A stretch of DNA of 64,000 nucleotides from NCBI GenBank assembly GCA_964607425.1, contig CAZSKQ010000001.1, forward strand, positions 27,784 to 91,783, in the 5' to 3' direction. Positions 1-54,482 of this stretch are shown here, piece by piece. Below the pieces are notes generated by a model. The model saw nothing but the letters and a program-made list of their open reading frames with translations, was not told the origin of the DNA and searched no databases. Every line of letters begins with the position of its first letter. The first letter of the stretch is position 1. The DNA comes from an uncultured Woeseiaceae bacterium. Its GTDB lineage: Bacteria > Pseudomonadota > Gammaproteobacteria > Steroidobacterales > Woeseiaceae. Position numbers and translations under genes: made by a program.

Positions 1-168
1 CTCGAGCGCTCCCTCGATCGTGAGCGACACCGCTTCATTGAACGCGGTGTTCGCCTCCGCGCTCATCATCGCGGACGCAATGACTTCACGCTGCGGCTCG
101 GTGCTCGGTGCAACGCGCGCTATTTCACCGCCCCTGAACGGGTCGAAATCCTCCAGTCCTGCATTCAT
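1..168 (-). CDS. NRPS condensation-domain protein, N-terminal 56 codons only (gene continues past the left window edge)
   Basis: ATG at 168-166, 22 nt after the PKS stop and preceded by GGAAGGA. My translation is MNAGLEDFDPFRGGEIARVAPSTEPQREVIASAMMSAEANTAFNEAVSLTIEGALE. The xPxTxxQRExxxxxxx start is typical of a C domain. The frame is open to position 1. Too short for the ORF track. Confidence 0.55.
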   Translation of the reverse strand, partial: MNAGLEDFDPFRGGEIARVAPSTEPQREVIASAMMSAEANTAFNEAVSLTIEGALE

Positions 169-190
169 TCGCTGTATGTCCTTCCAACGA

Positions 191-3100
191 TCACGACGCG
201 CGTCGGTCGTCTACCTTGATGTACTTGCCCGGCCGTTCCGGGTCGGCCACGAACCAGGCCGGCTTGCCCGAGCGATCCTTGCCCAGCCGGGCACCCGCGA
301 CCGGGGGAGCGCCCGCCCCAGCCTTGCTCAGGCGTTCCACCGCGACCGCATCGCCGTGCAGGAGGCCCTGCAGGACGAGCTCGGAGACGGATGCGATGAA
401 TGCATTCCTGATCGCTTCGATGTCGGCGTCCGAGTGACTGGTCGTCAGGAAGCAGGGCCGAAACTCCCACGCGTGTATACCGCGCTGGCGCAGCAGGTAG
501 AACAGCAATCCGCCATACGGGTCATCCGGCGGCACCGAAATATAGAAGAACGACGAGAAATCCTCGATGGTGACTTTGGCATCGATCTCCTGCAGGAAGC
601 GCCGGAGCTCCTCGACCATGCTGTGCGTGCGAGCGGCAAGGTTCTCCTGCAGCGCAGGGCCCTCCTCCTTCATGCGGGTCAGCACCGCCTTGCATGCGGC
701 CAGCGCCAGCGGGTGGCGGACGAATGTGCCGGCGAAAAAGGTCACACCGACCTCCGGGATCGAGTCGTCGCCATACTGCCACTGGCCGCCGTCCAACGCG
801 TCGAGAAAGCGGGCTTTGCCGCCGACCAGCCCGACCGGATAGCCGCCGCCGACGACCTTGCCGTAGACCGCGATGTCGGCACGGATGCCGAAGTGCGCCT
901 GCGCGCCGCCGGGGTGCACGCGAAACCCGGTAACGACCTCGTCGAAGATAAACGCCGTCTCCGATTGCTCGGTGATCTTGCGCACCTCGCGGAGGAAGTC
1001 CGCCGGTTGCAACCCGGGATGCCGGCTTTGCACCGGCTCCACCATCACCGCGGCCAGTTCCGGCGCCAGCGATCGAATCCGCTCGAGCGTCTCGTCGCTG
1101 CCGTAAGGCAGCACGATGATGTTCGAGGTCATGGCCCGCGGAATTCCCGGCGCGGCGGGCAGGCCGGCGCCTTCGCGGCCCGCCCGCACCACCACTTCAT
1201 CGAAAATGCCGTGATAGGCGCCGTCGAAGATTACGACCTTGTCGCGGCCGGTCACGGTGCGCGCGAGCCTCAGCGCCGCCAGCACGGCCTCCGAACCCGT
1301 GTTGGCGAAAGCGACCCGCTCGTTGCCCGTGAGCTCGCAGAAAAGCTCCGCGACTTCGCCGGCGAGTGGCGATTGCGGCCCGGTCTCGATGCCCTCGGCG
1401 ATCTGGCGCAGCACCGCCTCGGTCACGAAATCGGGCGAATAGCCGAAAAATATCGGGCCGAAGGCATTGGTAATGTCGATGTATTCCCGGCCGTCCAGGT
1501 CGTACAGTTTCGATCCGCGGGAGCGGTTCGTGACGATCGGGTAGACCATCTCTTTCAGGGTGGGATTGAAGCCGGATACCGTGCGCGGATCCGCGAGGTG
1601 ACGGCGGTGCTTGCGCACGAATTCCTTCGAAGCGGCCGTCGCGGCCGTGTAATCCCGGATCAGCTTGTCGATGTACGCCTGCTGGGCGCGCGTGAGCTGT
1701 TGCGCGGAGCCGGTCTTCTGGATGCGCGTGCCGGGCGTGCGCTTCGGCTTCGAGTCCCCGGTGTCCGGCGCCTCGGCCGCGGCTGCAGCCGACGCTACGG
1801 CTGCCACCGGCGGCGCGGCTGCGACGGATGCCGCTGCGGCAGGGGGCGCGGCCGCGGCAGCGGCGGCCGGATTTCCCGCGAGCAGCTGCAACTGGAACTG
1901 CATCAGCTCGAGCTGCCGCTCGATAAGGGCCTTTACGTCGTCGGGGGCCTTCGTGTCGGTAATGTTCGTCATCATCGTACTCGCCGGCGGTGGTGGTGGT
2001 GCGGCGGCGATCGCGGTCTCCGGTTCGCCGCCGGGTGCATCGTCTTGCACCTGCAAGGCCAGGTGCGCCGAAAGCTCCCCCAGCGTCGTGTACTCTTCCA
2101 TCAGCTCGCGGAAGCTCACCGCCACGCCGAACTCCTGCTTCAGCGCCGTGCTGACCTGTGTGAGCAGCAGCGAGTCGAAGCCGAGTTCCGGAAACCCGGC
2201 GTCCGGATCCGCGTCGTCCAGGTCGTATCCTGATGTGTCTTCGAACACCCGGGCAATGCGGGTCCTGAGGCTGTCCAGGCGTGCCGATTCGTTCATGGAT
2301 TTCCGTTCCGTTTGCGTGTTTTCTGGTTTGGGAGACGTCTCCGGCAGCGGGGCGCCGGTGACAGTCGGGACGTTCGCGGCCACCTGGCGCGGTTCCGCCG
2401 GGTCGACCCAGTGACGGGTACGCGCGAACGCGTACGCCGGCAGCGGCGCTTTTCGCGGGCGGCGCTCGCCCCAGTGAGCGCTAAAATCGATGTCCGCGCC
2501 GTTGACCCAGCAGCGTGCGGCGGCTTCCCAGAGCTGGCGCAAAGCCGAGGGGCCGATCCCGGCTTCGGGACTCGCGGCGCACGCCACCGGCGGCTCGGAA
2601 TGCCGGCACTGGCTCGCGAGGGTGGTCAGCGCCTTGCCGGGGCCGACTTCCACCAGCACGCAGGGGCCGCCTGCCGCGGCCGTCTCCACCGCCGCGGCAA
2701 ACCGCACCGGCTCGCGCAGCTGGCGCGCCCAGTACGCGGGGTCGGTCGCGGCGGCGTCGCTCAGCAGCACGCCCGTCGCGGTCGATACGATCGGGATACG
2801 CGGGGCATTCAGCTCCACGCGGGATAAAACCGCGGCCAGTTTCTCGACGGCCGGTTCCATCATCGCGGAGTGAAACGCATGCGACGTCCGCAACGGTTTG
2901 CAGCTCTTCCCGCGTTTCTCGAGCTCCTCCTGCAAACCGTTGATGGCGGCGGTGGGACCGGACAGCACGGTGAGCTCAGGGCCGTTGACCGCGGCGAGCT
3001 CGATCGGGCCGGTAACGAATTCCCGCGCCTCCTCCTCGGAGCAGAACAGCGTAAGCATGCTGCCTTCGGGCTGTGCCTGCATCGCCGCACCGCGAGCCGC

Positions 3101-5041
3101 AACGATGGCGAGCGCATCTTCGAACGTGAACACACCCGCGATCGCGCCCGCGGTAAACTCGCCGATGCTGTGACCGAGCAGCAGCGCCGGCTCGACGCCG
3201 ATGGATGCCAGCGCCTTTGCCAGGCTGAACTCGAACAAAAACAGCGCCGGCTGCGCAACGGCCGTGGCTTCGATACTTTTTTCGCTGGCCCCCGACGCGG
3301 TAAACAGCGCGCTTTCGAGATCGGGTCCGCCGTGATCGCGCAAGCACGCAAGGCCGCGATCGAACCACTCGCGAAACACAGGGGATTGCTCGCGCAGGCC
3401 CGCGCCCATATCGGGCCGCTGGGCTCCCTGCCCCGTGAACATGAACCCGATCCGGCGCCCGGGCATCGCCTTTCCGCGTACGGCGCGGCGCGCGTCATCC
3501 AGCGCCTCGCAGGCGTCGGCCAGCGAATGGGTGATCCAGGCGCTCCGGCACCGCATCCGCTCGCGTCCGAATTGCAGGGTGTGCAGCACGGAGGCGTGGG
3601 AAAGGGCCGGCGCCGCATCCCCGAGCCAGTCGCGCAGGCCGCGCGTGGCCCGCGCCAGCGCGTCATCCTCCCTGGCAGAAAGGCACAGCATGCCGGTTCC
3701 ATCCGCGTATTCGGCGGCGGCGACCCGCGGCGGTTCCTCGACGATCACGTGCGCGTTCGTACCGCCGACGCCAAAAGCGCTGACCCCGGCCCGCCGCGGT
3801 CCCCCCGGGCGCCACTCCAAAAGCTCGGAATTGACGTGAAACGGGCCGCTGTCGAGTTCCAGGCGCGGGTTGGGCTTGCGAAAGTGCAGCGTGGGGGGAA
3901 TCTTGCCGTGGTAGACGGCAAGTACCGCCTTGATGAAGCCGGCGACTCCCGCCGCATGCACCAGGTGGCCGATATTGGATTTCACCGAGCCTAAGAGGCA
4001 GGTCTGCCGCGCCGCCGTATCCTCCACGCCGAAGGCCTGTTTGAGTGCCGCGACCTCGATGGGATCGCCGAGTGGTGTCGCCGTGCCGTGGGTCTCGACG
4101 AAGCCGATCGTGCTGGGGTCCACGTCGGCATGCTCCAGGGCGGAGCGGATGACCCCGGCCTGGCCCGCGACGCTCGGCGCCGTATAGCTGACCTTGTCCG
4201 AGCCGTCGTTGTTGACCGCGAACCCGCGGATCGCCGCGTACACGTGATCGCCCTCGGCGATCGCATCCTCGAGCCGGCGCAGCACCACCACGCCCGCGCC
4301 GTCGTTGAAGGTGGTGCCGCTGGCGTCGGCGTCGAACGGCCGGCAGTGACCGTCGGCCGACAGCATCCCGCCTTCCTGGTAGAGGTAGCCCGCGTGCACC
4401 GGCACCGAGAGCGATGCGCCGCCGGCCAGCGCGATGTCGCACTCATAGTTGAGCAGCGACTGGGCGGCCTGGGCAATGGCCACGAGAGAGGTCGAGCAGG
4501 CCGTGCCGACGGTTACGCTCGGCCCGCGCAAGTTGAGCTTGTAGGAGATACGGGTGGCCAGGAAATCGTACTCGTTGGCAAGCGCTGCATTGAATTCCCC
4601 GATCCTGGCCGTGATGTCGGGGCGGCTCGCGAGAATCTGTGCGCGGTAGCGATTCCAGTTCATGCCAACGAAGACACCGATCAGGCCATCGAAAGCCGAC
4701 GGGCGGTGGCCTGCATGCTCCAGCGCGGACCAGGCGAGCTCCAGCAGGAGCCGCTGCTGCGGATCCATGACCGCCGCTTCCAGCGGCGTAATGCCGAAGA
4801 AGGCCGCGTCGAAGCGATCGTAGTCGGCTATCACGCCCTTGGCGCGGATATAGTCGTCCCGGGCCGCCATGCTTTGCGGTACCAGCGGATCGAGCTCATT
4901 CGGCGCAAAGAACCGGATCCCTTCCCGGCCGGCACAAAGGAGTTCCCAGAACTGCCCCACGTTGTCGGCGCCGGGAAAACGGGCACTCATCCCGACGACC
5001 GCCAGGCTGTTTGCAGGCAACGGCTGGTTTACCTCCTCCAT
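191..5041 (-). CDS. Hybrid type I PKS: KS - AT (malonyl-type) - ACP - class III (GSA-like) aminotransferase
   Basis: Track ORF 191..5308 trimmed to ATG 5041 (MEEVNQPLPANSLAVVGMSARFPGA), 6 nt after the upstream stop. KS about 3734-5008 (TACSTS, HGTATPLGD, NIGH). AT about 2594-3457 (GHSIGE, HAFH). ACP about 2054-2287 (LGFDSLL). Ala/Pro linker. PLP aminotransferase about 374-1696 (NTGSEA, VYGKVVGGG). No KR/DH/ER. Confidence 0.9.
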   Translation of the reverse strand: MEEVNQPLPANSLAVVGMSARFPGADNVGQFWELLCAGREGIRFFAPNELDPLVPQSMAARDDYIRAKGVIADYDRFDAAFFGITPLEAAVMDPQQRLLLELAWSALEHAGHRPSAFDGLIGVFVGMNWNRYRAQILASRPDITARIGEFNAALANEYDFLATRISYKLNLRGPSVTVGTACSTSLVAIAQAAQSLLNYECDIALAGGASLSVPVHAGYLYQEGGMLSADGHCRPFDADASGTTFNDGAGVVVLRRLEDAIAEGDHVYAAIRGFAVNNDGSDKVSYTAPSVAGQAGVIRSALEHADVDPSTIGFVETHGTATPLGDPIEVAALKQAFGVEDTAARQTCLLGSVKSNIGHLVHAAGVAGFIKAVLAVYHGKIPPTLHFRKPNPRLELDSGPFHVNSELLEWRPGGPRRAGVSAFGVGGTNAHVIVEEPPRVAAAEYADGTGMLCLSAREDDALARATRGLRDWLGDAAPALSHASVLHTLQFGRERMRCRSAWITHSLADACEALDDARRAVRGKAMPGRRIGFMFTGQGAQRPDMGAGLREQSPVFREWFDRGLACLRDHGGPDLESALFTASGASEKSIEATAVAQPALFLFEFSLAKALASIGVEPALLLGHSIGEFTAGAIAGVFTFEDALAIVAARGAAMQAQPEGSMLTLFCSEEEAREFVTGPIELAAVNGPELTVLSGPTAAINGLQEELEKRGKSCKPLRTSHAFHSAMMEPAVEKLAAVLSRVELNAPRIPIVSTATGVLLSDAAATDPAYWARQLREPVRFAAAVETAAAGGPCVLVEVGPGKALTTLASQCRHSEPPVACAASPEAGIGPSALRQLWEAAARCWVNGADIDFSAHWGERRPRKAPLPAYAFARTRHWVDPAEPRQVAANVPTVTGAPLPETSPKPENTQTERKSMNESARLDSLRTRIARVFEDTSGYDLDDADPDAGFPELGFDSLLLTQVSTALKQEFGVAVSFRELMEEYTTLGELSAHLALQVQDDAPGGEPETAIAAAPPPPPASTMMTNITDTKAPDDVKALIERQLELMQFQLQLLAGNPAAAAAAAPPAAAASVAAAPPVAAVASAAAAAEAPDTGDSKPKRTPGTRIQKTGSAQQLTRAQQAYIDKLIRDYTAATAASKEFVRKHRRHLADPRTVSGFNPTLKEMVYPIVTNRSRGSKLYDLDGREYIDITNAFGPIFFGYSPDFVTEAVLRQIAEGIETGPQSPLAGEVAELFCELTGNERVAFANTGSEAVLAALRLARTVTGRDKVVIFDGAYHGIFDEVVVRAGREGAGLPAAPGIPRAMTSNIIVLPYGSDETLERIRSLAPELAAVMVEPVQSRHPGLQPADFLREVRKITEQSETAFIFDEVVTGFRVHPGGAQAHFGIRADIAVYGKVVGGGYPVGLVGGKARFLDALDGGQWQYGDDSIPEVGVTFFAGTFVRHPLALAACKAVLTRMKEEGPALQENLAARTHSMVEELRRFLQEIDAKVTIEDFSSFFYISVPPDDPYGGLLFYLLRQRGIHAWEFRPCFLTTSHSDADIEAIRNAFIASVSELVLQGLLHGDAVAVERLSKAGAGAPPVAGARLGKDRSGKPAWFVADPERPGKYIKVDDRRAS

Positions 5042-5046
5042 GACGA

Positions 5047-6879
5047 CTACCGCGCTCGGCTGCGCGCCGCCTGCGCGGCGCGCCGCAGTGCCCCGCGGCC
5101 GGGACCCGCGGTCCGCGCCGCGGGCCCGGCAAGCGCGGCCTGCTGGGTGGCGATGGTCGCGTGCTCGAACACGAAAGTGGACGAGAGCGTCACCGGCGCT
5201 TGCTGCTGCAGCAGCTCGTGCAATTGCATGGCCTCCAGCGAGGTGCCCCCCGCATCGAAAAAGTTGGTATCGGGCGATTCGGGCAGGCGTCCCAGCACCG
5301 CCGACCACGCCTGGCGGACCGCATCATAACCGGGCGCCTCGCCCTGCGGCCCGGCCGCCGCAAACGGATCCGGCAATGCGGACGCGTCGAGCTTGCCGTT
5401 CGCGTTGATCGGCCAGCTGTCGAGGCAGGCGAAATAGTGCGGAATCATGTACGCGGGCAGCCGCTTTGCGAGTTGCCGGCGCAGGTCGGCCACGGACAAG
5501 GTGGACGGCAGCAGGTAGGCCGCCAGGCGCTTCTGCCCGGCCGGGCCCTTCCGCACCAAAACACGGCATTCACGCACGCCGTCGAGCTGCTCGATGGCCG
5601 CGCGGATCTCGCCGGGTTCAATGCGGTGACCGTCGATCTTGACCTGGTCGTCGAAACGTCCGAGAAATTCGTATACGCCATCCTCACGCTGCCGGACCCG
5701 GTCGCCGGTCCGGTAGGCGCGCACGCGCCCGCCGGAACCGGCCGCTACGCTGACGAAGCGCTCGGCCGTCTGCTGCGGGTGATTGAGGTACCCCAGAGCA
5801 ACGCCCGCGCCGAGAGCGAGCAGCTCGCCCTCCTCACCCGGCGTGACCGGCTCCAGGGCCTCGTCGACCACGAGCACCCCGGTGCCGGAAATCGGTTCGC
5901 CGATCGGCACGCTTGCGGCATCGGCAGGAAAGTTTCGCGGGATCGCGTAGCAGGTGGTGAACGTGGTGTTCTCGGTAGGGCCGTAGCCGTTGATCAGGCG
6001 CACTTCCGGAAGCGCGGCGAGCGCGCGCACGACGTGCGGGACCGACAGGGCCTCGCCGCCGGTGAGGAGATAGTCGAGACCGGAGAAAGTCCGCAGGTCC
6101 TGGTCCACGACGTTGTTGAACAGGGAGGCGGTCATCCACAGGCAATTCACCCCCGTCTCCGCGATGACCGCACGAAGACCCGCCGCCGTCGGCAGGCGAT
6201 CGTCGGGATAGAGAACGAGGATGCCGCCGTTCAGGAGCGGCGCCCAGATCTCGAGGGTGGAGGCGTCGAAGCTCTGCGGTGCGAGGTGCAGGAAAACAGT
6301 GCCCGCGTTGAGTTCCATGAAATTCGGCCCGAGCACCAGGCGTGCCACGGCCCCATGGGGAACGACGACCCCCTTGGGAACGCCGGTCGATCCCGAGGTG
6401 AACATGATGTAGGCCGGCGTCCCGGCGGCGAACACGGGCGACAAGGCCGCGGGCGGGGCGGTGGCGGGCAACTGGTCGAGGCGCAGGAGCGCGGCCAGGC
6501 CCTCGAATGCCTCCGCCGGCACGCCGGGCGACACGATGAGCGACAGGCCCGCGTCCCGGCAAAGCCGTGACAGGCGCTCGCGGGGGGAATCGGGGTCCAG
6601 GGGCACGTAGTGCGCGCCTAGCGACAGTACGCCAAGCATAGCGGCAACGGTGTCCGGATGACGCGCGGCGGCCAGGCCGACTGCCTGGCCGGCCTGCACG
6701 CCGGATGCCGCCAGCGCCTGGGCGATGGCACCGGCGCGCGCCGCGAGCTCGGCGTAGCTCCACTCGCGCCAGCCCGCCGCTTGCAAAAAACGCACGGCCG
6801 TCCGGTGTCCCGCGCTTTGCGCGATTACGCGAAAGCGCTCATGGATCAGCAATTGGTCGTTGCCCGGAAGAGCATCCAT
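5047..6879 (-). CDS. Stand-alone NRPS adenylation-PCP didomain (loading module)
   Basis: 610 aa. Motifs: MFTSGSTGVPKGV, FDASTLEIW (Asp of the amino-acid code present), GELLALGAGVALGY, YRTGD, NGKLD, then carrier motif FFDAGGTSLEAMQL. Confidence 0.9.
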   Translation of the reverse strand: MDALPGNDQLLIHERFRVIAQSAGHRTAVRFLQAAGWREWSYAELAARAGAIAQALAASGVQAGQAVGLAAARHPDTVAAMLGVLSLGAHYVPLDPDSPRERLSRLCRDAGLSLIVSPGVPAEAFEGLAALLRLDQLPATAPPAALSPVFAAGTPAYIMFTSGSTGVPKGVVVPHGAVARLVLGPNFMELNAGTVFLHLAPQSFDASTLEIWAPLLNGGILVLYPDDRLPTAAGLRAVIAETGVNCLWMTASLFNNVVDQDLRTFSGLDYLLTGGEALSVPHVVRALAALPEVRLINGYGPTENTTFTTCYAIPRNFPADAASVPIGEPISGTGVLVVDEALEPVTPGEEGELLALGAGVALGYLNHPQQTAERFVSVAAGSGGRVRAYRTGDRVRQREDGVYEFLGRFDDQVKIDGHRIEPGEIRAAIEQLDGVRECRVLVRKGPAGQKRLAAYLLPSTLSVADLRRQLAKRLPAYMIPHYFACLDSWPINANGKLDASALPDPFAAAGPQGEAPGYDAVRQAWSAVLGRLPESPDTNFFDAGGTSLEAMQLHELLQQQAPVTLSSTFVFEHATIATQQAALAGPAARTAGPGRGALRRAAQAARSRAR

Positions 6880-7217
6880 AGCTCAAGAATTCCCTGCTGG
6901 TCTGGCGAGCGTGATCGCGCCGTCAGGGGGCGGCATTCTTATGCAGGCGCAAATTGACCCCCGCCGGCGTGACAATACCGGGAATGGTAGCGTCGCGGCG
7001 GGCCGAAGCGCATTGATTGCCGTCACAGTCGCAAACGTGAAGCAGTCCCCGGCGAAACGCGCCGCCCGGCAGCCTTCCAGGAGCGGCCGGGAACGGTCCG
7101 CTCCGCCGTGGCAGGCGGGGCGCAGCGCCGTGGCTGCCTCCCGCTGCAGGCGCAGAGCGACAGCAGGCCCGCGAAACAGCCCGAAACCCAGGTACCGCAA
7201 TCTCATCGACGCCGCCC

Positions 7218-7245
7218 TTGTTTTCTTGCTTCTACACGGAATAAT
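7218..7245 (+). promoter_or_regulatory. Possible sigma-70 promoter for the heparinase-like gene
   Basis: TTGTTT (7218-7223), 16 nt, AATAAT (7240-7245), in a locally AT-richer patch of the 550-bp divergent intergenic region. Pattern match only. Confidence 0.25.
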
Positions 7246-7433
7246 GCGTCATCGCTGACGCCTGTATTCTACGCCATGCAGGACTTCACCGAGTATAGGG
7301 TAAGCTCCCGTCCGGCGCTCGCCTCCGCGGCAACTGCCGACCCACGGCGCGGCGGTGATACACTGCTGTTCGGCTACAGTGCACCGGTCAACACCGCCTG
7401 GCCGGGACACCCGGCCATCGCTATACGTTTCGC

Positions 7434-13200: not shown

Positions 13201-13530
13201 CAGCTCTGCAGCCGTGGTTGCACCGGTCACCGGTATCGTGACCATGCGGCAGGAAGCGTCGCCCATCCCCGCCAGGCGCAACACCAGCGGGATGTCCGCC
13301 TGGCCGGAATAGCGATAGAAGAGCGCCCCCGACGAGGCGACGGCAAGGTTGAGCCGCCGCTCACGCGCATCCGTCTCCGCCCGCCGCAGCAGCTTCACGG
13401 TTCGGTCGGGCGCCACCCGCGCCGGCCGGAACGGCGTATCGGGCGTCTTCAGCCGCTCCCAAGGCAGCTGCAGCGCGACATCGTCATGGGCCGGAACCGA
13501 CTGCGTTTGCGAAGCCAGGGTCGATATCAT
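10258..13530 (-). CDS. NRPS-like fusion: truncated C domain - adenylation - PCP - alpha/beta hydrolase-like domain
   Basis: 1090 aa. The N-terminal about 200 aa resemble the C-terminal half of a condensation domain. A domain: YYTSGSTGQPKGV, FTFSISLFE (no Asp at the amino-acid-code position), YHMGDRG, LKIDRR. PCP: LLGGDSLLAMEM. C-terminal alpha/beta fold: VLICPPLG, RFDFFGSADSLG, elbow FAMRLAS. Confidence 0.85.
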   Translation of the reverse strand: MISTLASQTQSVPAHDDVALQLPWERLKTPDTPFRPARVAPDRTVKLLRRAETDARERRLNLAVASSGALFYRYSGQADIPLVLRLAGMGDASCRMVTIPVTGATTAAELMSRANSAVGNAKPATGAVPPLVVDVAFGQRSRAHVPDTIGREADVTLELTFVGDSLTVSLLYNESLLAAGTAARLLEHFSLIAEQLDGEGAAPVRELRLHTPAELAWLARHGRGPVVHFRPTRVHDEVAAHARNTPHKAAVRFNGAELSYAELDRRANRLASYLHRSGVTDGKAVIVCLEPSFHIAVALLGILKAGAAYVPVNPLHPEFRTRAIVEDTRPELILTSTRSARAVEGFDIARINLDDPPASFTNEPAVAPRVHIRPEQLAYVYYTSGSTGQPKGVAGTHANLSHIVNVSRLRYAIDANDVIPAVAAFTFSISLFELTAALSVGGTLLVLEREHVLDLARMTATLREVTLFHIGPSLLKSLVRYIRENVSDPDSEFQRVRHASSGGDMVPPELLRELREIFTAAELYVIYGSSEIALMGCTWDCSSERVERTLVGKPFANVHLLVLDDDGNRVPVGVAGDVCFGGPGVVAGYVNRKLQANLRFVEKDGTRWYHMGDRGRLTESGDLELLGRRDFQLKLRGMRIELAEVDYHLRQAPGVREAVAAAHAHQRGEAVLVGWYVPDDSGRANPETLRAHMVSRLPDYMVPAFYVALDELPLNHNLKIDRRRLPQPSFAAPATANPPVNETEKAVARIWRDLLKVERVSLDDNFMLLGGDSLLAMEMIFLVERELGYRLDGMDVLRESLWILAHRIDEHAGKAEPAAGAAMTREIWPVSTFYFGSGDSLYGVYSPARAESTSPPVLICPPLGFEYTRCHFLLRNLMERLADAGIPSLRFDFFGSADSLGSDLEGGPARWRTDLLAAAEELRQRAGVAHIRLFAMRLASALALQALPADLVDRWVFWDPLTDGAPWYRELLRMSQEKARKLMLKRNLRKPRPIPGGEELVGTRYSDAAIADLQALRLHRSDLPEAADIRLVLSPDYAGAYREALDVFDGFPQAITGTAATWSQASRVTVAITAKDILERLGEALQGSGR

Positions 13531-14639
13531 CGGGAATCCAGCACCGGTGACGCCGCGGCTCCCCCGGCACGCGGCCGGACGTCGGCCGCCGTGGCAACCG
13601 CACGGACGCCCTGCCGGAACCCGTGGCGGTCGCGCGCGCGCGCCAAAAACAGCAGCAGGAGGGCCGGGTCTTCCGCCGCCGGCATGTGGAGGCGCTTCAG
13701 GGAATAGGGGTCGTCGCCGACGCTGTTGATGCCGACGTCCGTCGTGACGGCCGACCTGTAGCCGGCCTGCGCCACCGCTCTCGCGATCTGCGGATTCCAG
13801 TTACCGTTGGGGTAGCAGAAATGGAGGCAGGGTTCGCCGGTCGTCGCCTCGATATACCTGCGCGAACGGTCGAGCTGCTGCATCCGGGTTTGCTCGTCGA
13901 CGACATCCAGCCGCACATGATCGACGGTATGGCTGCCGATAGTAGCGGAACCGGATGAGCTCAGGAGCCCGAGATCTTCCTTCGACAGCGTGGCACTGCA
14001 GGGGTCGCTATCCTGTATGTCGGCAAGAGCCTTTCCCGCTGCTCTCTCCAGCCGCCCGCTGACACCGTCGACAAAGGCGTAGAACTCACGATCATCGTCG
14101 AAGTGCTTCTTCGCCAGCCGGCGCAGCTCTGCATAGGTAGCGCGAAGCGATTCGCGATCGCCGGGATTGAAAGTCAAAGAACGGGTGCCGATCCTGACCT
14201 GGGTCGGTTGTTTCAGGTTCTGTATTGCATAATCGAGGCGCTCGAACCAGTACGGCGCCCGGCTGTCGAGCATGCCGGTTGCGACATAGAACACCGGCTT
14301 GATCCCGTATTCCTTCAGCACCGGCAGCGCCACCTCCATGTTATTGCGGTAGCCGTCATCGAAAGTGAGTACCACACCGTTGGGGACCATCGGCTTGTTG
14401 CCCGCCAGTATCTCCAGGGCCTCGTCGATGGACAGCCATCGGTAATGGCGGCTGATGACGGCAAGCTGGCGACGCAAGCGGTCGACGGAGAAATGGATCC
14501 TGAGGGGCTGCCAGGGGGCGGTCTTCGGATCGATAACGCTGTGCAGGCAAAGAATGAGCACGCGCCGCCGGTTGGTCCATCGAAGCCACCGGGTTATCCC
14601 GGTCCAGAGAAGAAGCCTGGCTATTGTTTTTTTTATCAT
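13527..14639 (-). CDS. Polysaccharide deacetylase (CE4/NodB family)
   Basis: 370 aa. N-terminal TM, LTFDDGYRNN, IGSHTVDH, FCYPNGNW. ATGA overlap with the downstream gene. Confidence 0.85.
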   Translation of the reverse strand: MIKKTIARLLLWTGITRWLRWTNRRRVLILCLHSVIDPKTAPWQPLRIHFSVDRLRRQLAVISRHYRWLSIDEALEILAGNKPMVPNGVVLTFDDGYRNNMEVALPVLKEYGIKPVFYVATGMLDSRAPYWFERLDYAIQNLKQPTQVRIGTRSLTFNPGDRESLRATYAELRRLAKKHFDDDREFYAFVDGVSGRLERAAGKALADIQDSDPCSATLSKEDLGLLSSSGSATIGSHTVDHVRLDVVDEQTRMQQLDRSRRYIEATTGEPCLHFCYPNGNWNPQIARAVAQAGYRSAVTTDVGINSVGDDPYSLKRLHMPAAEDPALLLLFLARARDRHGFRQGVRAVATAADVRPRAGGAAASPVLDSR

Positions 14640-14779
14640 GCCTCACCATTCGGCCGCACAGGCGGCTCTCTCGTCATGGCGATAGGGCAAGGGTGGCTCC
14701 CTCTCCACCGCCTCGCCGATGCGCGCACTCCGCGCGATCCTGTCCGCCCCGTCATGATATCAGTAAAATGCGATGCATA

Positions 14780-15982
14780 TCAGGTACATGGCGCCAGAAT
14801 CCCGTCCCATTGCGCGGCGACGTTCGAAGTGGCCAGGCGCATGGCATCGCGGCGTGCCCGGGCACCGAGCGTTCGGCGAAGCGCTGCATCCTCGCAAAGA
14901 AGCGAGAGCTTTTCCGCGAAAGCGTCGACGCTCGAGGGTGTGACGAGATACCCGTTGATGCCATCCTGGACCAGGTCGCCAAGATCGCCCACGTCGCTGA
15001 CGACAACGGGTAGCGCGCACAGCATCGCCTGCACCATGGCCTGCGACAGGCCTTCGGACTCGGAAGTCAGCACGAAAACGCGGCTGCGCTTGAGCCATGC
15101 ATGCACGTCACTCTGCCAGCCGACGAAGTCCACGCGGTCCGCAACCCCATGCGCTTCCGCGAATTCCATGAGCTCACCGCGGAGGGGACCATCGCCGACG
15201 ATCGCCGCCCGCACGGCGCCGCCAAGGCGCGCTATGGCTTCGATCAGCACGTCGACCCTCTTCACTCGCGAGAGCCGCCCCACCAGCACGAGGTCGTAGT
15301 CCGGTGCCGCCTCCGCCGGCGCGAACAAGTCGGCATCGAAGCCTCCCGGCACGACGACGACCTGCCCGGATGCGCCCGCCCGTTCGAAGAACCGGCGCAC
15401 GCTCTGACCCATCGTGACGATGTAGTCGAACCGGCCGGCCGCTGCGAGCAGCTTCCTTTCGACATAAGGGCTCGGACCCTGCAGGCGGCGAAAGATCTGG
15501 TTTTCGGTTGCATAACCGCCGCCGTCGACTTCCCGTGCACCGCCGCCGCAGATGTACAGGGAGCGCGCCCCGATCGCACGCGCCACCAGGAGAGCAATGA
15601 GCCCGTTGACCAGCAGGTGGAAACCGCCGACGACGTCGGCCCGGCTGCGCACGGCCACGCGCACGAAGGTCGCCAGCCTCGCGGAGGTCCTGCCGCAGAG
15701 GCGCACCAGCCAGCGGGCGGGGTATACGGCCTCGACGCCGGGGATCTCCGGAACCGGCGATGCCGCAACCATGGTGATCCGCCGGATGGAACGCGAACGG
15801 GCCATCGGACGCAGGTGTGTCTCCAGCCAGTTGTCGGTGTAAAAGGTACCGGTCAGCACCACGTGCGCGCCCGCGGCCGGGAGCGGCCGCTGCTTCGGGC
15901 CCAGCCGCTCCGCGAGCCGGATGGCGCCTGACAGCAAAGTGATGAACGCCGCGATGGCAGCGCGCAGGATGGCGCGTTTCAC
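14780..15982 (-). CDS. Glycosyltransferase family 4
   Basis: 400 aa. C-terminal GT-B motif SESEGLSQAMVQAMLCALPVVVSDVGDLGDLVQDGINGYL. Confidence 0.85.
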   Translation of the reverse strand: MKRAILRAAIAAFITLLSGAIRLAERLGPKQRPLPAAGAHVVLTGTFYTDNWLETHLRPMARSRSIRRITMVAASPVPEIPGVEAVYPARWLVRLCGRTSARLATFVRVAVRSRADVVGGFHLLVNGLIALLVARAIGARSLYICGGGAREVDGGGYATENQIFRRLQGPSPYVERKLLAAAGRFDYIVTMGQSVRRFFERAGASGQVVVVPGGFDADLFAPAEAAPDYDLVLVGRLSRVKRVDVLIEAIARLGGAVRAAIVGDGPLRGELMEFAEAHGVADRVDFVGWQSDVHAWLKRSRVFVLTSESEGLSQAMVQAMLCALPVVVSDVGDLGDLVQDGINGYLVTPSSVDAFAEKLSLLCEDAALRRTLGARARRDAMRLATSNVAAQWDGILAPCT

Positions 15983-17094
15983 AGCGTTTCCTCGAACAGC
16001 CGCTCGAAGCGGCTCATCGCGACGTCAATGGCATGATGTCGTTCGAACCATGCGCGCGCGCGCACGCCGACGGCTGCGCGCTCTCCGGATTCCTGTACGA
16101 GGCGGCTGATCTCGCGGCAGAACGCATCACTGTCCGCCGCCACCGCCCCGAGGCCCTCGCGCGCGATCAGCCCGTCGGGATCCACCGTCGACACGACGGG
16201 CAGGCCCGCGCTCCACGCCTCGATGAAGGTATTCGGGAAACCTTCATAGTGCGACGTGCAACAGAGGGCGGTGGCGCCACGATATAGTTCGGCCAGCTGC
16301 TGCTTGCCGGCCGCACCGAAAAACTCGAGGTTCGGCACCGTGCGTGCGGCCTCCTGCACCTCGGGGACATAGGGGTCGGACGGATCGCCCGGCCCGACGA
16401 CGACGAAACGGAAATCCGGCAGCCGTTGCGCGACTTCCACGAACAGCGCGATGTTCTTCTCCGGGGCGATGCGGCCGACCAGAAGCAGCATCGGCGGCTT
16501 GCCGGGCGTCCCTTCGGGCGCGCCCCAACCCGGTCCGTAATCGTGACCCGGCATCGGCAGAATGGTGGCGGGCCGCCCGGTCGCCTGCTCCAGCCGCCGC
16601 CCCTGGTCGCCGGTCTGCACGATGATCCTGTTCGCCGCGCCAAGCCCGTAGCGGTAGAGCATGCCCTCGCGCAGCGAGGTGCCCCCATGCAGCCATTCGT
16701 TGCAATCGATATCGCTCGCGACCGAGAACACGAACTTGCGCCGGTGCCGGCGACACCAGAGCGCCACCTGGCCTGTCACTTCCTCTGCGCCGTTCTGGTA
16801 ATAGAGCTCGGCGTCGGCGGCGCCGAGCGCGGTATTCAGGGAACTCCAGCGGGGTATGAAGAAGCGTACGAACGGAACGCCTGCCGCACGTGCGCAGGTC
16901 TTGATTACCCGCACGTTATCGAAAGTTTCGGTCGGCGGCCCACCCTCATCCCAGGTGATCAGCGAAACCTGGTGCCCCCGGCCCGCCAGCCAGCGGGCCA
17001 GCATCGAGGTCTGGCGCTCCACCCCGCCAATGTGGCCGGTGCGCCGGCCGCTGATCATGCCGTAGGCGTTGTGGGCTACGATCGCTATTCGCAT
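15979..17094 (-). CDS. Glycosyltransferase family 4
   Basis: 371 aa. MRIAIVAHNAYG..GG.E, SHYEGFPNTFIEAWSAGLPVVST. 4-nt overlap with the next gene. Confidence 0.85.
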   Translation of the reverse strand: MRIAIVAHNAYGMISGRRTGHIGGVERQTSMLARWLAGRGHQVSLITWDEGGPPTETFDNVRVIKTCARAAGVPFVRFFIPRWSSLNTALGAADAELYYQNGAEEVTGQVALWCRRHRRKFVFSVASDIDCNEWLHGGTSLREGMLYRYGLGAANRIIVQTGDQGRRLEQATGRPATILPMPGHDYGPGWGAPEGTPGKPPMLLLVGRIAPEKNIALFVEVAQRLPDFRFVVVGPGDPSDPYVPEVQEAARTVPNLEFFGAAGKQQLAELYRGATALCCTSHYEGFPNTFIEAWSAGLPVVSTVDPDGLIAREGLGAVAADSDAFCREISRLVQESGERAAVGVRARAWFERHHAIDVAMSRFERLFEETL

Positions 17095-21373: not shown

Positions 21374-21389
21374 TGCAACTTACGTGCCA
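21374..21389 (-). promoter_or_regulatory. Sigma-54 (-24/-12) promoter directed leftward
   Basis: Minus strand reads TGGCAC-GTAAG-TTGCA, an exact match to TGGCAC-N5-TTGCA with correct GG/GC spacing. It lies about 370 nt upstream of the ATG at 21002 and upstream of the riboswitch. Confidence 0.7.
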
Positions 21390-21839: not shown

Positions 21840-23696
21840 ATGTGCGGAATTGCCGGCAAGTGCCTCCCCGATGCCTCCGCGCCCGTCGACCGCGGCCTGC
21901 TCGAGCGCATGACACGCGCGCTCGCCCATCGCGGTCCTGACGGCGAAAGCCTGCACTTCGACGCCGGCGTGGGCCTCGGGCACCGCCGGCTCAGCATCAT
22001 CGACCTCGAAGGCGGAACGCAGCCGATCTTCGGTGCCGGCGGCGCGTTGGCCGTGATCTTCAACGGCGAGATTTACAATTACAAGGAACTCCGCGACGAG
22101 CTCATCGCGGACGGTTACCGTTTCAGCACGCAGTCGGACACCGAGGTCATCGTTCACCTGTACGATCGGATGGGCGCTGAATGCGTGCACCGGTTGAACG
22201 GAATGTTCGCCTTCGCGATCTGGGACAACCGGTCCAGAACCCTGTTCGCCGCGCGTGACCGGCTGGGTGAGAAGCCTTTCTATTACCATCACGCGCCGAA
22301 TGGCGCGCTCCTGTTCGCGAGCGAGATCAAATCCCTGCTCGAGAGTGACGCGATCGACCGCGCACTCGACCTCGGCGCCGTCGATGATTATTTCGCCTAC
22401 GGCTACGTACCCGGTTCGAAATCGATTTACCGCCAGATCCGCAAGCTCCCCGCGGCACACACGCTGACCTGGCGCGAGGGCAGGCTGTCGATTCAGCGTT
22501 TCTGGTCGCATACCGAAGCGGCGGCCGATGCGCCAAAAACCCCGTCGGGTGCGCTCGAAGCAGTCGATACACTGCTCCGCGACTCCATTCGCCTGCGGCT
22601 GCGCAGCGACGTGCCCGTGGGTGCATTCCTGAGCGGCGGTATAGATTCCAGCCTCATCGTCGCACTTGCCAGCGAGCTTTCGGCAGCCCCGCTCTCCACA
22701 TACTCGATCGGGTTCCGGGAAACGGAGTTCGATGAAAGCAGCTTCGCGCGTGCGATCGCCGAACGGCACGGCACCGTACATCGCCAGATCACTGTCGGCG
22801 AACTCAACCTCGACCGTTTCCCCGACCTGGTGCGCCAGTTCGACGAACCGTTCGCCGACCCCTCAGCCGTTCCGACCTACTACGTCACGCAGGCAGCCTC
22901 GCGCGACCTCAAGGTGTGCCTCTCCGGCGATGCCGGCGATGAGCTTTTCGCCGGTTACCCACAGTACGTGCTGGAGCCGGGCGAGGCGTGGGTGGACCGG
23001 CTTCCGGCCTGGCTGAGGCAGCTCGCCTTCGGCATCCCGGCGCGGCTCATTCCCGATCACGTACGAGGGAAGGGCTGGCTGAGGCGGCTCGCGGTGGACG
23101 GCGCGGTGCGTTACCAGCGCATCATCGGTGTCTTCGACAATGTCGAGCGGGAACGCCTGTTCCGGCGCGACGCGGGCATCCGCGTCGATCCCGGCGCAAG
23201 CTTGCTCACGCCGTGGTTCAAGCACGATCGTTCACCGATCCGGGCGCGCCAGCTCGCGGACCAGGCCACCTTTCTCACCGACGACATACTCGTCAAGGTC
23301 GACCGCAATTCGATGATGAACAGCCTCGAGGTGCGGGTGCCATTTCTCGACCATCGCCTGGTGGAGCTCGCGAACGCCCTGCCGGTCTCGTTGCACATAA
23401 AAGGCGGCCGGCAGAAATGGATACTCAAGGAGCTGCTCGAGGAGAAGGCGCCCGCGGGCATCACCCGCCGCGGCAAGCAGGGATTCAATATGCCCATACG
23501 CGACTGGCTGCGTGGCAGCTATCGTGAGTACGCGCGGGACCTGCTCCTCTGCCCGGGCAATCGCTCGCTCGATTTCCTGGATGCTGCCGCCGTGCGCCGG
23601 CTGTTCGATGCGCACCAGCACGGCCAGAGGGATCTCAGCGCCCGCCTCTGGACCCTCATGTGGTTCGAGCAATGGTGCCGGCATTTCAGGGCATGA
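21840..23696 (+). CDS. asnB: Asparagine synthase (glutamine-hydrolysing) family amidotransferase
   Basis: 618 aa. Starts MCGIAG (Ntn Cys2), HRGPDG. PP-loop FLSGGIDSS. Resembles the amidotransferase found in exosortase-A type EPS loci. Confidence 0.9.
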   Translation: MCGIAGKCLPDASAPVDRGLLERMTRALAHRGPDGESLHFDAGVGLGHRRLSIIDLEGGTQPIFGAGGALAVIFNGEIYNYKELRDELIADGYRFSTQSDTEVIVHLYDRMGAECVHRLNGMFAFAIWDNRSRTLFAARDRLGEKPFYYHHAPNGALLFASEIKSLLESDAIDRALDLGAVDDYFAYGYVPGSKSIYRQIRKLPAAHTLTWREGRLSIQRFWSHTEAAADAPKTPSGALEAVDTLLRDSIRLRLRSDVPVGAFLSGGIDSSLIVALASELSAAPLSTYSIGFRETEFDESSFARAIAERHGTVHRQITVGELNLDRFPDLVRQFDEPFADPSAVPTYYVTQAASRDLKVCLSGDAGDELFAGYPQYVLEPGEAWVDRLPAWLRQLAFGIPARLIPDHVRGKGWLRRLAVDGAVRYQRIIGVFDNVERERLFRRDAGIRVDPGASLLTPWFKHDRSPIRARQLADQATFLTDDILVKVDRNSMMNSLEVRVPFLDHRLVELANALPVSLHIKGGRQKWILKELLEEKAPAGITRRGKQGFNMPIRDWLRGSYREYARDLLLCPGNRSLDFLDAAAVRRLFDAHQHGQRDLSARLWTLMWFEQWCRHFRA

Positions 23697-36260: not shown

Positions 36261-36279
36261 GCGATTACCAAAGCTCCTG

Positions 36280-37872
36280 TCATGCGCCGGCCTGCCCGAG
36301 CAGGTCGCGGAGCAAACGCACACCCGGCTCCTGCAGCAGCAGGACGCCGGCAAAAAGCATGATCAATGCACCCGTCGCGGCCGCGAACGACAGCAGGTCG
36401 GCATGACGCGCGCGGCGCCGCTCGCCCAGCAGCGTCATAGTGACCTGGCCCAGCACCGGCCTGCCGAGGAACTGGCGCAGGGTCTCGACGTCGTGGAAAA
36501 CCGGCTGCGCCCGGTTCAGCACGACCGCGAGCCCGCCGGCGCTGCCGAGGCCGAATATCAGGACACCGAACAGCAACAGGGTGCGCTTCGGGCCGACCGG
36601 CTCGGCGCTCACGGTGGGAGGGGCCGTCACGTTGAAAATGACCACGTCGCTCTCTTCGTCGACCTTGCCCATGCGTTCCCGCTCCTTCTGGAGCAGGATC
36701 TCGCTGTACAGCGCGCGGTACTGGTCGTAGTCGCGATTGAGCGCGGCGAGCTGCGCCTCGACCTCCGGGATAGTGTTGATCTGCTCGCGCAGCCGTTCCA
36801 CCGCGGCCCTGTGCTGCTGGATCTGGCTCTCCAGCGTGACGATCTTCACGCTGGATTCGTTCAATGCGATCTGTGCCGTCTGGTAGACGGGATTGGTCGA
36901 GTTCGCTACGCCTTCCATCCCGCCGCTGATTTGCGCCATTGCCGCCAGCTGCGCCTGCTGCTGGGCATAGAGCTGCTCGAGCTGCTCTGTGACGGCGACG
37001 ACGTCCGGATGCTGCTCGGTAAACGTCAGCAGCAGGTTCGCGCGCTGGTTCTCGAGTTCCTTGATGCGGGCGGCCGTCGTGTTGCCGGGCACCACGGGAC
37101 CGGCCGCACCGTCCTCGGCCTGCGGCAGGTACGGTTTTTCCGACTGCAGCTGACGGCGCAACTCGCTGCGGCGATCGATCTCGATCTGCAGGTCACTTTC
37201 GACCTGGTTCAGCTTCCCCAGCTCGGCCTGCAGCCGCTCGAACACACCGCCGCTCTCGCCGGGCAGCAGGCCCACGTTCTTCTTCTTGAAGTCCGCGAGG
37301 CGGCGCTCGGCCGTTGCGAGCTGGTTCTCATAGTAGGAAAGCTGGTGCTCGAGGTAATTGTCCACCTGCTCCGTACCGCGCTCCTTCAGCTTGAGGACGT
37401 CCTCCACGAACGAATTGAGCAGCGTTTTGACGACGGCAAGCGCCATCTGCGGATCGTGGTCCTCGAAGGTGATCGTGTAGAGATTGCTCGACTGGCTCGA
37501 CCGGCCACTGTCGATCTGGATTTTTTCCCTGAGCGCGGTATACAGCGCGGCCGATTCCTCGGGGTTCTGCGCCCGCTTATCCAGCCCGGTTTCCTCTGCC
37601 ACGCGCTGCAGCTGCGGCAAGGCGAGCATGGCCTGGCGCACGACGAAGACGCGGGCACCGACACCCGGCGATACCCCGACCTGCCCCATCACCTCGGCAA
37701 GCCGTGACTGCGCATCCACGTAGACCTGCGCGTGGGCCTCGTAGATGTTCGGCATCGAGTACACCACCAGCCAGCCGACGGCGCATATGCCCCAGGCCAC
37801 TGCCAACGCCAGCCAGCGGAAGCGCCAGGCGCCTTTTATTTCGTTGCGCAGGATGTGCAGTAGTTCATGCAT
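36280..37872 (-). CDS. Polysaccharide chain-length determinant (GumC/Wzc N-terminal type)
   Basis: 530 aa. TM1 near the N-terminus (RWLALAVAWGICAVGWLVVY), long coiled-coil periplasmic region, TM2 near the C-terminus. Confidence 0.8.
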   Translation of the reverse strand: MHELLHILRNEIKGAWRFRWLALAVAWGICAVGWLVVYSMPNIYEAHAQVYVDAQSRLAEVMGQVGVSPGVGARVFVVRQAMLALPQLQRVAEETGLDKRAQNPEESAALYTALREKIQIDSGRSSQSSNLYTITFEDHDPQMALAVVKTLLNSFVEDVLKLKERGTEQVDNYLEHQLSYYENQLATAERRLADFKKKNVGLLPGESGGVFERLQAELGKLNQVESDLQIEIDRRSELRRQLQSEKPYLPQAEDGAAGPVVPGNTTAARIKELENQRANLLLTFTEQHPDVVAVTEQLEQLYAQQQAQLAAMAQISGGMEGVANSTNPVYQTAQIALNESSVKIVTLESQIQQHRAAVERLREQINTIPEVEAQLAALNRDYDQYRALYSEILLQKERERMGKVDEESDVVIFNVTAPPTVSAEPVGPKRTLLLFGVLIFGLGSAGGLAVVLNRAQPVFHDVETLRQFLGRPVLGQVTMTLLGERRRARHADLLSFAAATGALIMLFAGVLLLQEPGVRLLRDLLGQAGA

Positions 37873-38501
37873 CAGAATCGGGTCTCCGGCACCACCAGCA
37901 CGTCGCCGGCGTACATATTGATGTTTTGGGAGACATCCCCCTGCAGGAGATCGGCCACGTGCACACGGCAGCGGACCTGCTGCCCGTTCACCGTCCGCAC
38001 CAGATCCGTGCGATTGCCGGCTGCGAACTCGGTCAACCCGCCGACGGTGACGATGACGTCGAGCACGTTAAGCCCATAGCGGTACGAAATGGATTGCGCA
38101 TTCACGACTTCGCCGATGACCTGGATCTGGTTTGCCGCTCCCTGTCCGGTCACGATGACGCTGACTTCGGGCGTGCGCAGGTACTCTCCCAGCACCTTCT
38201 CCATGTCGTCGGCGAGCTGGGTCGGGGTCTTTCCCGAGGCCTGCATGTCGTCGATGAGCGGAGTGGAGATCCTGCCGTCCGGCCGGACGGGAATGGAGGT
38301 CGACAGCTCCGCGTTCCGCCAAACGACGATTTGCAGCGTATCGCCCGCACCGATGACGTAGTCGGATTCTGCTGTCGGGGGCTCGGGGCAGTCGGTCGCC
38401 CGTACGGTATCGCCACTGCTGGCGCATCCTGCTGCGCCAAGCACCGGCAGCAGCAGCAGCGCTCTCCAATGTTTACCCAAAGCTGATCCCATCCCCTGCA
38501 C
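37872..38501 (-). CDS. Outer-membrane polysaccharide export lipoprotein (Wza/OPX family)
   Basis: 209 aa. Lipobox LGAAGC. PES motif region YVIGAGDTLQIVVW, SLBB-like GDVLVVP. GTG 38501, or alternative ATG 38492. Confidence 0.85.
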   Translation of the reverse strand: MQGMGSALGKHWRALLLLPVLGAAGCASSGDTVRATDCPEPPTAESDYVIGAGDTLQIVVWRNAELSTSIPVRPDGRISTPLIDDMQASGKTPTQLADDMEKVLGEYLRTPEVSVIVTGQGAANQIQVIGEVVNAQSISYRYGLNVLDVIVTVGGLTEFAAGNRTDLVRTVNGQQVRCRVHVADLLQGDVSQNINMYAGDVLVVPETRF

Positions 38502-39899: not shown

Positions 39900-39918
39900 A
39901 CCGGCCCTGCCGTGGGTA

Positions 39919-39943
39919 TTCGCGCGCGCTGCGCGCTCCTGCA
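39919..39943 (-). repeat. REP-like element, single copy
   Basis: TTCGCGCGCGCTGCGCGCTCCTGCA, between the kinase stop and the deacetylase-like gene. Confidence 0.75.
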
Positions 39944-39969
39944 ACCGGGGGCGGGGCTTCTCGCCCGAG

Positions 39970-50090: not shown

Positions 50091-50204
50091 TCAAACTCCC
50101 TTAACTGATGCCAAATTGATTATAGTTTCTGCCAGGGCGCGACGTTCCACATGGTGCGCCTTCTGGGGGCCGGGCGGAATTTACCATATTCTGAATGGCC
50201 TGCG

Positions 50205-52207: not shown

Positions 52208-52253
52208 TACGTTTTACTTGGCCGAGACGAAATGGGACGCGCAGGTGTGCCGG

Positions 52254-53656: not shown

Positions 53657-53731
53657 GCGGCTGGCTTGACCTGGGCTGGTTACGGTCTCCAGGAGCAGCG
53701 GTAGACTGCAATCCGGGGCGAGGCATACAAC

Positions 53732-54451: not shown

Positions 54452-54482
54452 AAGCCGTTCCTCATCTATATAAACCGAGCTA

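Follow-up and report, generated by a model that had tools for sequence, protein, structure and literature searches.

The left end of a 64-kb stretch of DNA from an uncultured Woeseiaceae bacterium (the window, meaning the whole stretch at its full length) carries the first genes of a seven-gene operon for a hybrid nonribosomal peptide synthetase-polyketide synthase (NRPS-PKS), the remainder of which was recovered from a metagenome contig, SRR11843830_2297 (L007), found by exact-protein look-up. Going by its domains the line is one that works like MycA of mycosubtilin assembly, but is amino-acid-primed, is laid out as NRPS-PKS-NRPS and has no thioesterase (TE). To our knowledge aminating PKS modules of the MycA type are known only with fatty-acid starters. 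Tentatively, and somewhat short of an even call, the operon is read as an accessory pathway of an exopolysaccharide (EPS) system of the exosortase A (XrtA)/PEP-CTERM type, which would supply a small amine-rich acyl substituent to a polysaccharide or envelope acceptor, the polysaccharide most plausibly being that acceptor. This reading draws on the homology of two hydrolases of the operon to the exosortase A hydrolase pair, on a second unit in the window that is coupled to glycosyltransferase (GT) and deacetylase genes, and on a cassette that travels with XrtA genes.

The assembly line and its predicted chemistry

From the listing of open reading frames (ORFs) and their translation, all three leading genes of the window lie co-directionally on the minus strand, as the initial annotation had it, and Pfam matches were obtained for every domain it had named in the first two, an adenylation-peptidyl carrier protein (A-PCP) loading protein followed by a ketosynthase-acyltransferase-acyl carrier protein-aminotransferase (KS-AT-ACP-AMT) PKS. 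Coordinates and scores are collected in the table. The first A domain (A1) has the motifs SFDAS and NGKLD in translation and retains Asp235 and Lys517 in the code alignment, and with a TIGR01733 score above cutoff and a Val-type code it fits the proposal, made from the Asp and Lys of those motifs, that an amino acid is loaded. The PKS gene starts at the Met at 5041, 5 bases past the A-PCP stop, and not at the GTG at 5308. Its AT was rightly called malonyl type, GHSIGE and HAFH being present in the translation and invariant across homologues, and in an alignment of 22 PKS homologues the KS residues C182, H318 and H359, the AT S625 and H721-H724, the ACP S957 and the pyridoxal phosphate (PLP) lysine K1395 are all invariant. 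Neither the AT-ACP linker nor the ACP-aminotransferase linker, which is Ala/Pro-rich, gave a domain match. The PKS protein has no Pfam match to a ketoreductase (KR), dehydratase (DH) or enoylreductase (ER), again as first described, and so the beta-keto group would reach the aminotransferase. Given the E-values, chance is excluded for the domain assignments in the window.

The third gene is cut by the edge of the window, and its 56 in-window codons, where a condensation (C) domain had been supposed, have no Pfam or NCBIfam match when taken alone. They are identical to the start of a 1498-aa protein of L007, and as L007 and the window differ at just 8 positions over a 15,041-bp overlap (99.95 % identity) the contig can be used as the left continuation. 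The leftward extension proposed in the initial annotation was in this way obtained. The full third protein has two Condensation matches, an AMP-binding and a PP-binding match in Pfam, and it begins with a canonical C domain (C1, HHVICDG), so the supposed domain is there once the protein is complete. Downstream of it L007 encodes a 251-aa and then a 278-aa alpha/beta-hydrolase, followed by a 270-aa TIGR04325 methyltransferase (197 bits, cutoff 80) and a Cupin_8 protein. The order of the operon is A-PCP, KS-AT-ACP-AMT, C-A-PCP-C*, hydrolase-2-like, hydrolase-1-like, methyltransferase and Cupin_8, where C* is a terminal C-like domain, and with intergenic gaps of 5, 22, 19, -19, 12 and 43 nt the genes are close enough to be taken as a single operon of seven. 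No TE or reductase domain (Thioesterase, NAD_binding_4) is seen by Pfam in the line as recovered from window and L007, no further module beyond the two A domains is present on L007, and the seven genes include no fatty-acyl ligase, starter C domain, transporter, exporter or receptor gene. The nearest named relatives are metagenome-assembled genomes (MAGs) of Burkholderiales and Betaproteobacteria.

Stachelhaus codes, the reading of which had also been proposed, were taken from a GrsA-anchored alignment in which the GrsA control gave DAWTIAAICK. A1 reads DALWLGGTFK, a Val-type code identical at 8 of 10 positions to the Stachelhaus code for Val, and the A domain of the third protein (A2) reads DILACCLIWK, which is Gly-like, a modified form of DILQLGLIWK, the code for Gly. 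In 15 cassettes that have the hydrolase pair, most of the A1 codes that could be read are of the Val type or the Pro type (DVQFIAHVVK), and A2 almost invariably reads DIL[AQ]xGM[VI]WK. In many orthologues, those of Marinobacter and Desulforhopalus among them, the A-PCP is fused to KS-AT-ACP-AMT in a protein of ~2200 aa, which supports the A-PCP as primer of the KS.

As predicted, Val-S-PCP and malonate would yield 4-amino-5-methyl-3-oxohexanoyl-ACP, transamination of the 3-keto group would then give a vicinal 3,4-diamino-acyl thioester, and C1 would join this to the Gly-like residue. With an amino-acid starter the aminated carbon adjoins an existing amine, hence the vicinal diamine, and the product is probably a small 3,4-diamino-acyl-Gly-type unit made from valine, malonate and a Gly-like residue. 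From a MycA-type module primed in this way thiotemplate chemistry would lead to beta,gamma-diamino acids, which are seldom met as building blocks. In biotin synthesis BioF and BioA act in a comparable sequence, an amino acid and an acyl unit giving an alpha-aminoketone which is then transaminated to a vicinal diamine. The counterpart of the amination proposed here would be the conversion of 7-keto-8-aminopelargonate (KAPA) to 7,8-diaminopelargonate (DAPA) by a class III PLP aminotransferase, with the difference that the present reaction would occur on carrier thioesters.

The likeness to MycA and McyE that was suggested at the outset stands for the aminating core and not for the priming. Shared with MycA, and also with PuwE and McyE, are the KS-AT-ACP-aminotransferase core, the lack of reductive domains, a C domain next in line and an adenylating enzyme with a carrier upstream. 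In contrast to beta-aminating lines such as MycA, which start from a fatty acid loaded by a fatty acyl-AMP ligase (FAAL; PMC4219810), the starter here would be an amino acid under a Val/Pro-type code. Further differences from MycA are the predicted vicinal diamine, the presence of only two amino-acid modules, and the end of the line, which instead of a TE has a C-like domain lacking the catalytic His and two free-standing hydrolases.

Chain release and the exopolysaccharide setting

In C* the motif HQxxxDG replaces HHxxxDG, the sequence being PHQLVFDG in the window line and in the relatives L094, L012 and L095 (Marinobacter and Desulforhopalus among them) and PNQFAFDG in L013. Both forms thus lack the second, catalytic His but keep the motif around it. 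HQxxxDG itself is shared by lineages as far apart as Betaproteobacteria and Desulfobacterota, and the rest of the domain is far more divergent, with identity of 25-31 % over C* as against 43-53 % for C1 and A2. The glycopeptide X domain is likewise a terminal Condensation fold without catalytic His, differing from the HQ (NQ in L013) form seen here, and the AmbE C* domain is among the PDB matches. To judge from its position only, C* probably docks partners.

In every lineage tested the hydrolase-2-like proteins have TIGR03101 as best NCBIfam match (73-108 bits, cutoff 203) and the hydrolase-1-like proteins TIGR03100 (46-68 bits, cutoff 168), and these are nearly the sole NCBIfam matches of the pair. 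The order hydrolase-2 then hydrolase-1 is kept in at least 15 loci, with a 19-nt overlap between the pair in the window line. Alignments of the hydrolase-1-like family show an invariant GxCSG Cys together with an Asp and a His, and the place of the Cys is taken by the nucleophile Ser in an aligned hydrolase of solved structure. At the elbow of the hydrolase-2-like family stands GxRxG, with an Arg and no nucleophile, and this family occurs as a domain fused right after the PCP, which is the TE position, in L046, L051 and a 1090-aa protein of the window. A model of the 289-aa hydrolase-1-like protein of the window made with AlphaFold2 (AF2; predicted local distance difference test, pLDDT, 81.7) shows the usual fold of alpha/beta-hydrolases, and a fold search with it returned only generic esterases, lipases and the trans-acting TE DcsB, with no specific functional analogue. 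In the mechanism envisaged the hydrolase-2-like protein would act as an adaptor, and the Cys-Asp-His enzyme would receive the chain as a Cys thioester and pass it on, an acceptor being a likelier recipient than water.

We know of no function proposed for the accessory ligase, ACP and hydrolases 1 and 2 of exosortase A since these were defined. Like that module (TIGR03098 acyl-CoA ligase with TIGR03100 and TIGR03101), the operon has adjacent paralogous hydrolases after an adenylating enzyme and carrier, in an XrtA EPS locus; unlike it, an NRPS or NRPS-PKS replaces the stand-alone ligase and the hydrolases score 46-108 bits against cutoffs of 168 and 203. No TIGR03098 ligase or TIGR03099 decarboxylase is found in the window or L007. 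The cassette could be an elaborated form of the ligase-ACP-hydrolase1/2 module, and relatives standing in the TE position, one with a Cys nucleophile and the other without, suggest that the exosortase A hydrolases off-load carrier-bound acyl groups onto an EPS or exosortase acceptor. The cassette so offers a testable role for hydrolase genes long unexplained, and cultivated carriers exist (Marinobacter salarius). Our literature search found no paper linking NRPS/PKS or hydrolases 1/2 to exosortase/PEP-CTERM and none about the accessory genes themselves, and the text of Haft 2006 does not mention the hydrolases. As precedent for a link between exosortase and genes for small molecules we found only the N-acyl amino acid synthases, which are associated with PEP-CTERM/exosortase and of which one, when disrupted, abolished a polysaccharide phenotype in Methylomonas LW13, according to the account of Craig et al. 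2011 given in PMC11072679. These too are genes for amino-acid-derived metabolites at exosortase/EPS loci, although each is a single GNAT-like acyltransferase with no homology to NRPS-PKS.

A second A-PCP-hydrolase unit is found inside the EPS operon of the window. In its 1090-aa protein residues 12-230 can be aligned with C domains over their C-terminal half and residues 814-1090 match the hydrolase-2-like positions of other loci, and C112, D135 and H253 of the 289-aa hydrolase encoded beside it are shared without exception among 22 homologues. The A-domain code of the 1090-aa protein is SIFHSGILMK, with Ser instead of Asp235, and lacking this Asp the domain probably has a substrate other than an alpha-amino acid. 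A deacetylase gene comes after two genes for family 4 GTs (GT4), and 4-nt overlaps between the two GT4 genes and between the deacetylase and the 1090-aa gene make for translational coupling of the unit. Recalling the logic of NodB and NodA, the neighbouring deacetylase could expose a sugar amine as an acceptor for this second unit. Elsewhere the two-gene minimal unit is present in a gammaproteobacterial MAG, where a PEP-CTERM protein and an acyltransferase are encoded next to it, and in a Cyclobacteriaceae MAG, where the genes around it are for sugar modification.

Judged by its gene content the window is an XrtA/PEP-CTERM-type EPS locus. The export protein and the PrsK histidine kinase score above their cutoffs and the AsnB-family amidotransferase below its own, and the other EPS genes are for a TIGR03016-like outer-membrane protein, a priming GT, stp2-like GT4s and a Wzy-like protein, with a MatE-like flippase, a sulfotransferase, ManB, ManC, UDP-glucose dehydrogenase (UGDH) and WecB also encoded. 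The NRPS-PKS line had been placed at the edge of this locus, which has to be revised: polysaccharide-type genes continue on the far side, where L007 has, beyond Cupin_8, a sulfotransferase gene on the opposite strand and then one for a GINT1_N protein, and with these and the TIGR04325 methyltransferase the line is nested in the EPS locus. The minus-strand EPS (GT) operon starts at 21002, and 372 bp upstream of this, in a divergent intergenic region, is a perfect sigma-54 -24/-12 consensus, TGGCACGTAAGTTGCA, which as a predicted site it fits RpoN-dependent control of this operon of the PrsK/PrsR type.

Conservation of the neighbourhood was followed on flanks of +/-10 kb, in a closer clade and in a scan of GTDB with the PKS alignment. 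The scan gave at least 80 loci; ~50 among the matches listed have NRPS modules on the flanks of a KS-AT-ACP-AMT core, and 12 among them have the hydrolase pair. In the closer clade, Marinobacter salarius (CP136535.1) has exosortase A (TIGR03109 230 bits, cutoff 208) at 4 kb from the cassette, which comes after PrsK/R/T-type genes and a FemAB-like gene. In a soil relative (L094, 74 % identical) the genes just ahead of the cassette are those for the XrtA chain-length determinant (410 bits, cutoff 279), tyrosine kinase, export protein and outer-membrane protein. L098 (72 % identical) has the same GT4, beta-helix and lyase-like flanking genes as the window in a shuffled order, and there the 1090-aa unit stands directly after Cupin_8 on the same strand. 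In Desulforhopalus and in a betaproteobacterial MAG the neighbours of the cassette are a gene resembling ligase_PEP_1 (376 and 518 bits, cutoff 592), one for a small ACP and one for an AsnB homologue of the XrtA type; such ligase genes accompany the cassette only in L011 and L095, and in having ligase and ACP these two are like the exosortase A module.

Competing readings

The strongest alternative, which we consider rather unlikely, is that the operon is an independent secondary-metabolite cluster for a diffusible diamino-peptide, a chelator or a signal, with the hydrolases cleaving the thioester and the EPS setting due to island clustering or shared regulation. A vicinal diamine with a carboxylate would be a plausible chelator, and the operon has its own tailoring genes. 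Several observations weigh against an accessory pathway for EPS. The operon has its own divergent promoter region, a 554-bp stretch in which no sigma-54 consensus is found, and an opposite-strand lyase gene parts it from the GT operon. Among the matches listed, tblastn found XrtA markers inside 10 kb in none of the 12 distant hydrolase-pair cassettes, so the XrtA association is shown, on flanking sequence, for the closer clade only, and the cassette of L013 has TonB_C, TPR and porin genes around it with no recognisable polysaccharide-biosynthesis genes within 10 kb. In the 64-kb window itself no exosortase, PrsR or PrsT was found (tblastn with Marinobacter proteins, a search which gave no FemAB there either) and no PEP-CTERM protein (regex scan for the tail). 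The hydrolase scores, far under the curated cutoffs, make the pair homologous to TIGR03100/TIGR03101 but place it outside these families, the A2 code of the window is Gly-like at only 7 of 10 positions, and the free gamma-amine of the predicted intermediate could lactamise and so release the chain early. More widely, the search for XrtA markers by tblastn over 29 loci of the scan, among the matches listed, gave almost nothing besides priming GTs. A priming GT was near 3 of 17 loci with the hydrolase pair and 7 of 31 without it.

Set against the independent cluster are the recurrence of the cassette, through rearrangements, beside XrtA-specific genes of Betaproteobacteria, Gammaproteobacteria and Desulfobacterota, the homology of its hydrolases to those of exosortase A, the sister unit within the GT/deacetylase operon and the lack of an exporter or receptor gene. 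The initial annotation had allowed for both a link of the line with the EPS and a cluster that just happens to lie next to it, and on hydrolase homology, sister unit and XrtA adjacency the case now leans to a tie. If the accessory pathway is carried one step further, the Cys hydrolase could load an amine handle onto a polysaccharide or lipid carrier, the free amine then serving exosortase A as the nucleophile by which PEP-CTERM proteins become anchored covalently to EPS. This is a long shot, and equally so is its extension to the ligase-ACP-hydrolase1/2 modules, for which sortase and the lipid II cross-bridge would be the analogy.

A different outcome of the amination step, improbable in our view, is that the aminotransferase works as an aminomutase, moving the amino group from C4 to C3 via a bound diamine and leaving a 3-amino-4-oxo acyl chain. 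The domain does belong to the class III branch that resembles glutamate-1-semialdehyde (GSA) aminomutase, scoring 253 bits with HemL models and 178-196 bits with solved GSA aminomutases. Alpha-aminoketones are the substrate class of GSA aminomutase, and the substrate predicted here would be one of them, unlike that of MycA. However MycA, whose enzyme is a genuine beta-keto transaminase, is far closer, its aminotransferase domain (6KFM) being the best PDB match over the full domain length at 416 bits (E 1.5e-123) versus 196, and in the PLP-Lys region the YGKVVGGG of the PKS aligns with the YGKIIGGG of 6KFM. The identification of a GSA-type aminotransferase used with the logic of MycA is upheld by these scores, and the alpha-aminoketone substrate keeps the aminomutase outcome as a minor alternative.

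By far the least probable is a lipopeptide line of the iturin/mycosubtilin or microginin kind, in which a fatty acid is loaded first and a beta-amino fatty acyl peptide is made: the order A-CP-KS-AT-ACP-AMT-C-A-PCP matches MycA, the aminotransferase is most MycA-like and known AMT-bearing lines begin with FAAL (PMC4219810), but A1 is an amino-acid A domain (TIGR01733 384 against 317 bits, Asp235 and Lys517, Val-type code), the recovered contig has two A domains only and no FAAL, starter C, TE or further modules, and the reading is rejected. The initial annotation had held that a complete stand-alone lipopeptide cluster with its own TE and transporter would speak against an EPS connection, and no TE, transporter or lipid starter was found.

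Coordinates and further features of the locus and its relatives

Table. Features of the window and of related loci; positions are those of the window unless a locus is named.
Feature	Position	Strand	Basis
A-PCP loading protein, 610 aa	5047..6879	-	Pfam AMP-binding 2.7e-74, PP-binding 7.8e-13; TIGR01733 384 bits (cutoff 317)
KS-AT-ACP-aminotransferase PKS, 1616 aa	191..5041	-	Pfam domains
KS domain, aa 12-387 of PKS	3881..5008	-	ketoacyl-synt 1.6e-70, Ketoacyl-synt_C 2.3e-42
AT domain, malonyl-type, aa 533-815 of PKS	2597..3445	-	Acyl_transf_1 3.2e-48; GHSIGE, HAFH
ACP, aa 928-994 of PKS	2060..2260	-	PP-binding 6.5e-15; GFDSL
MycA-type PLP aminotransferase domain, aa ~1128-1548 of PKS	398..1660	-	Aminotran_3 2.8e-47
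C-A-PCP-C* gene start, first 56 codons of 1498 aa, window-cut	1..168	-	identical to N-terminus of L007 14874-19370
Terminal Condensation-like C* domain	L007 18021-19367		PHQLVFDG motif
Divergent intergenic region, 554 bp, presumed NRPS-PKS operon promoter	6880..7433	.	gene coordinates
Hydrolase-1-like alpha/beta-hydrolase, Cys nucleophile, 289 aa	9392..10261	-	TIGR03100 3.9e-16, 59 bits (cutoff 168)
C-domain remnant-A-PCP-hydrolase-2-like protein, 1090 aa	10258..13530	-	AMP-binding 7.9e-75, PP-binding
Polysaccharide deacetylase and two GT4 glycosyltransferases	13527..17094	-	Polysacc_deac_1, PgaB-like; GT4s stp2-like
Perfect sigma-54 -24/-12 consensus TGGCACGTAAGTTGCA	21374..21389	-	one exact match vs 0.04 expected
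XrtA/PEP-CTERM-type amidotransferase, AsnB family	21840..23696	+	TIGR03108 4.1e-191, 637 bits (below 817 cutoff)
XrtA/PEP-CTERM EPS export protein	37872..38501	-	TIGR03027 203.7 bits (cutoff 180)
PrsK, XrtA/PEP-CTERM histidine kinase	39970..42015	-	TIGR02916 603 bits (cutoff 300)
CocE/NonD hydrolase	L012 22800-24614
CocE/NonD hydrolase	L094 6162-7961
CocE/NonD hydrolase	L095 21242-23083
CocE/NonD hydrolase	L011 from 23721
CocE/NonD hydrolase	L037

Sulfotransferase genes flank the NRPS-PKS operon on both sides, at 29227-30198 (-) of the window and at 22775-23683 (-) of L007, which suggests a sulfated polysaccharide. Two long ORFs of the window, 35419-37707 (+; 762 aa) and 38760-40136 (-; 458 aa), have a coding-like G+C content at third codon positions (GC3) of 0.75-0.80 and no Pfam or NCBIfam match; the 458-aa ORF runs over the end of prsK, a place at which one would look for a PrsR response regulator and none is present. 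Over 50000-64000 of the window G+C falls from ~65 % to 54-59 % and there is what looks like a second, O-antigen-like set of glycan genes, with a WecA/MraY-family transferase (50205-51254), a short-chain dehydrogenase/reductase (SDR; 51254-52207), a GT4 (55565-56803) and a weakly AsnB-like protein (56653-58158). This segment may have been acquired horizontally.

Beside the cassette in five relatives is a gene for a CocE/NonD-family hydrolase (Peptidase_S15/PepX_C; TIGR00976 342 bits in Marinobacter), which is absent from the window and L007. Five loci of Nostoc and Aulosira (L014-L017 and L024) have the Val-type A-PCP and KS-AT-ACP-AMT, some with Cupin_8, and no hydrolase pair; they carry an extra A domain with the code DTENMGALTQ and without Lys517, and going by these sequences they probably represent a different, uncharacterised product family.

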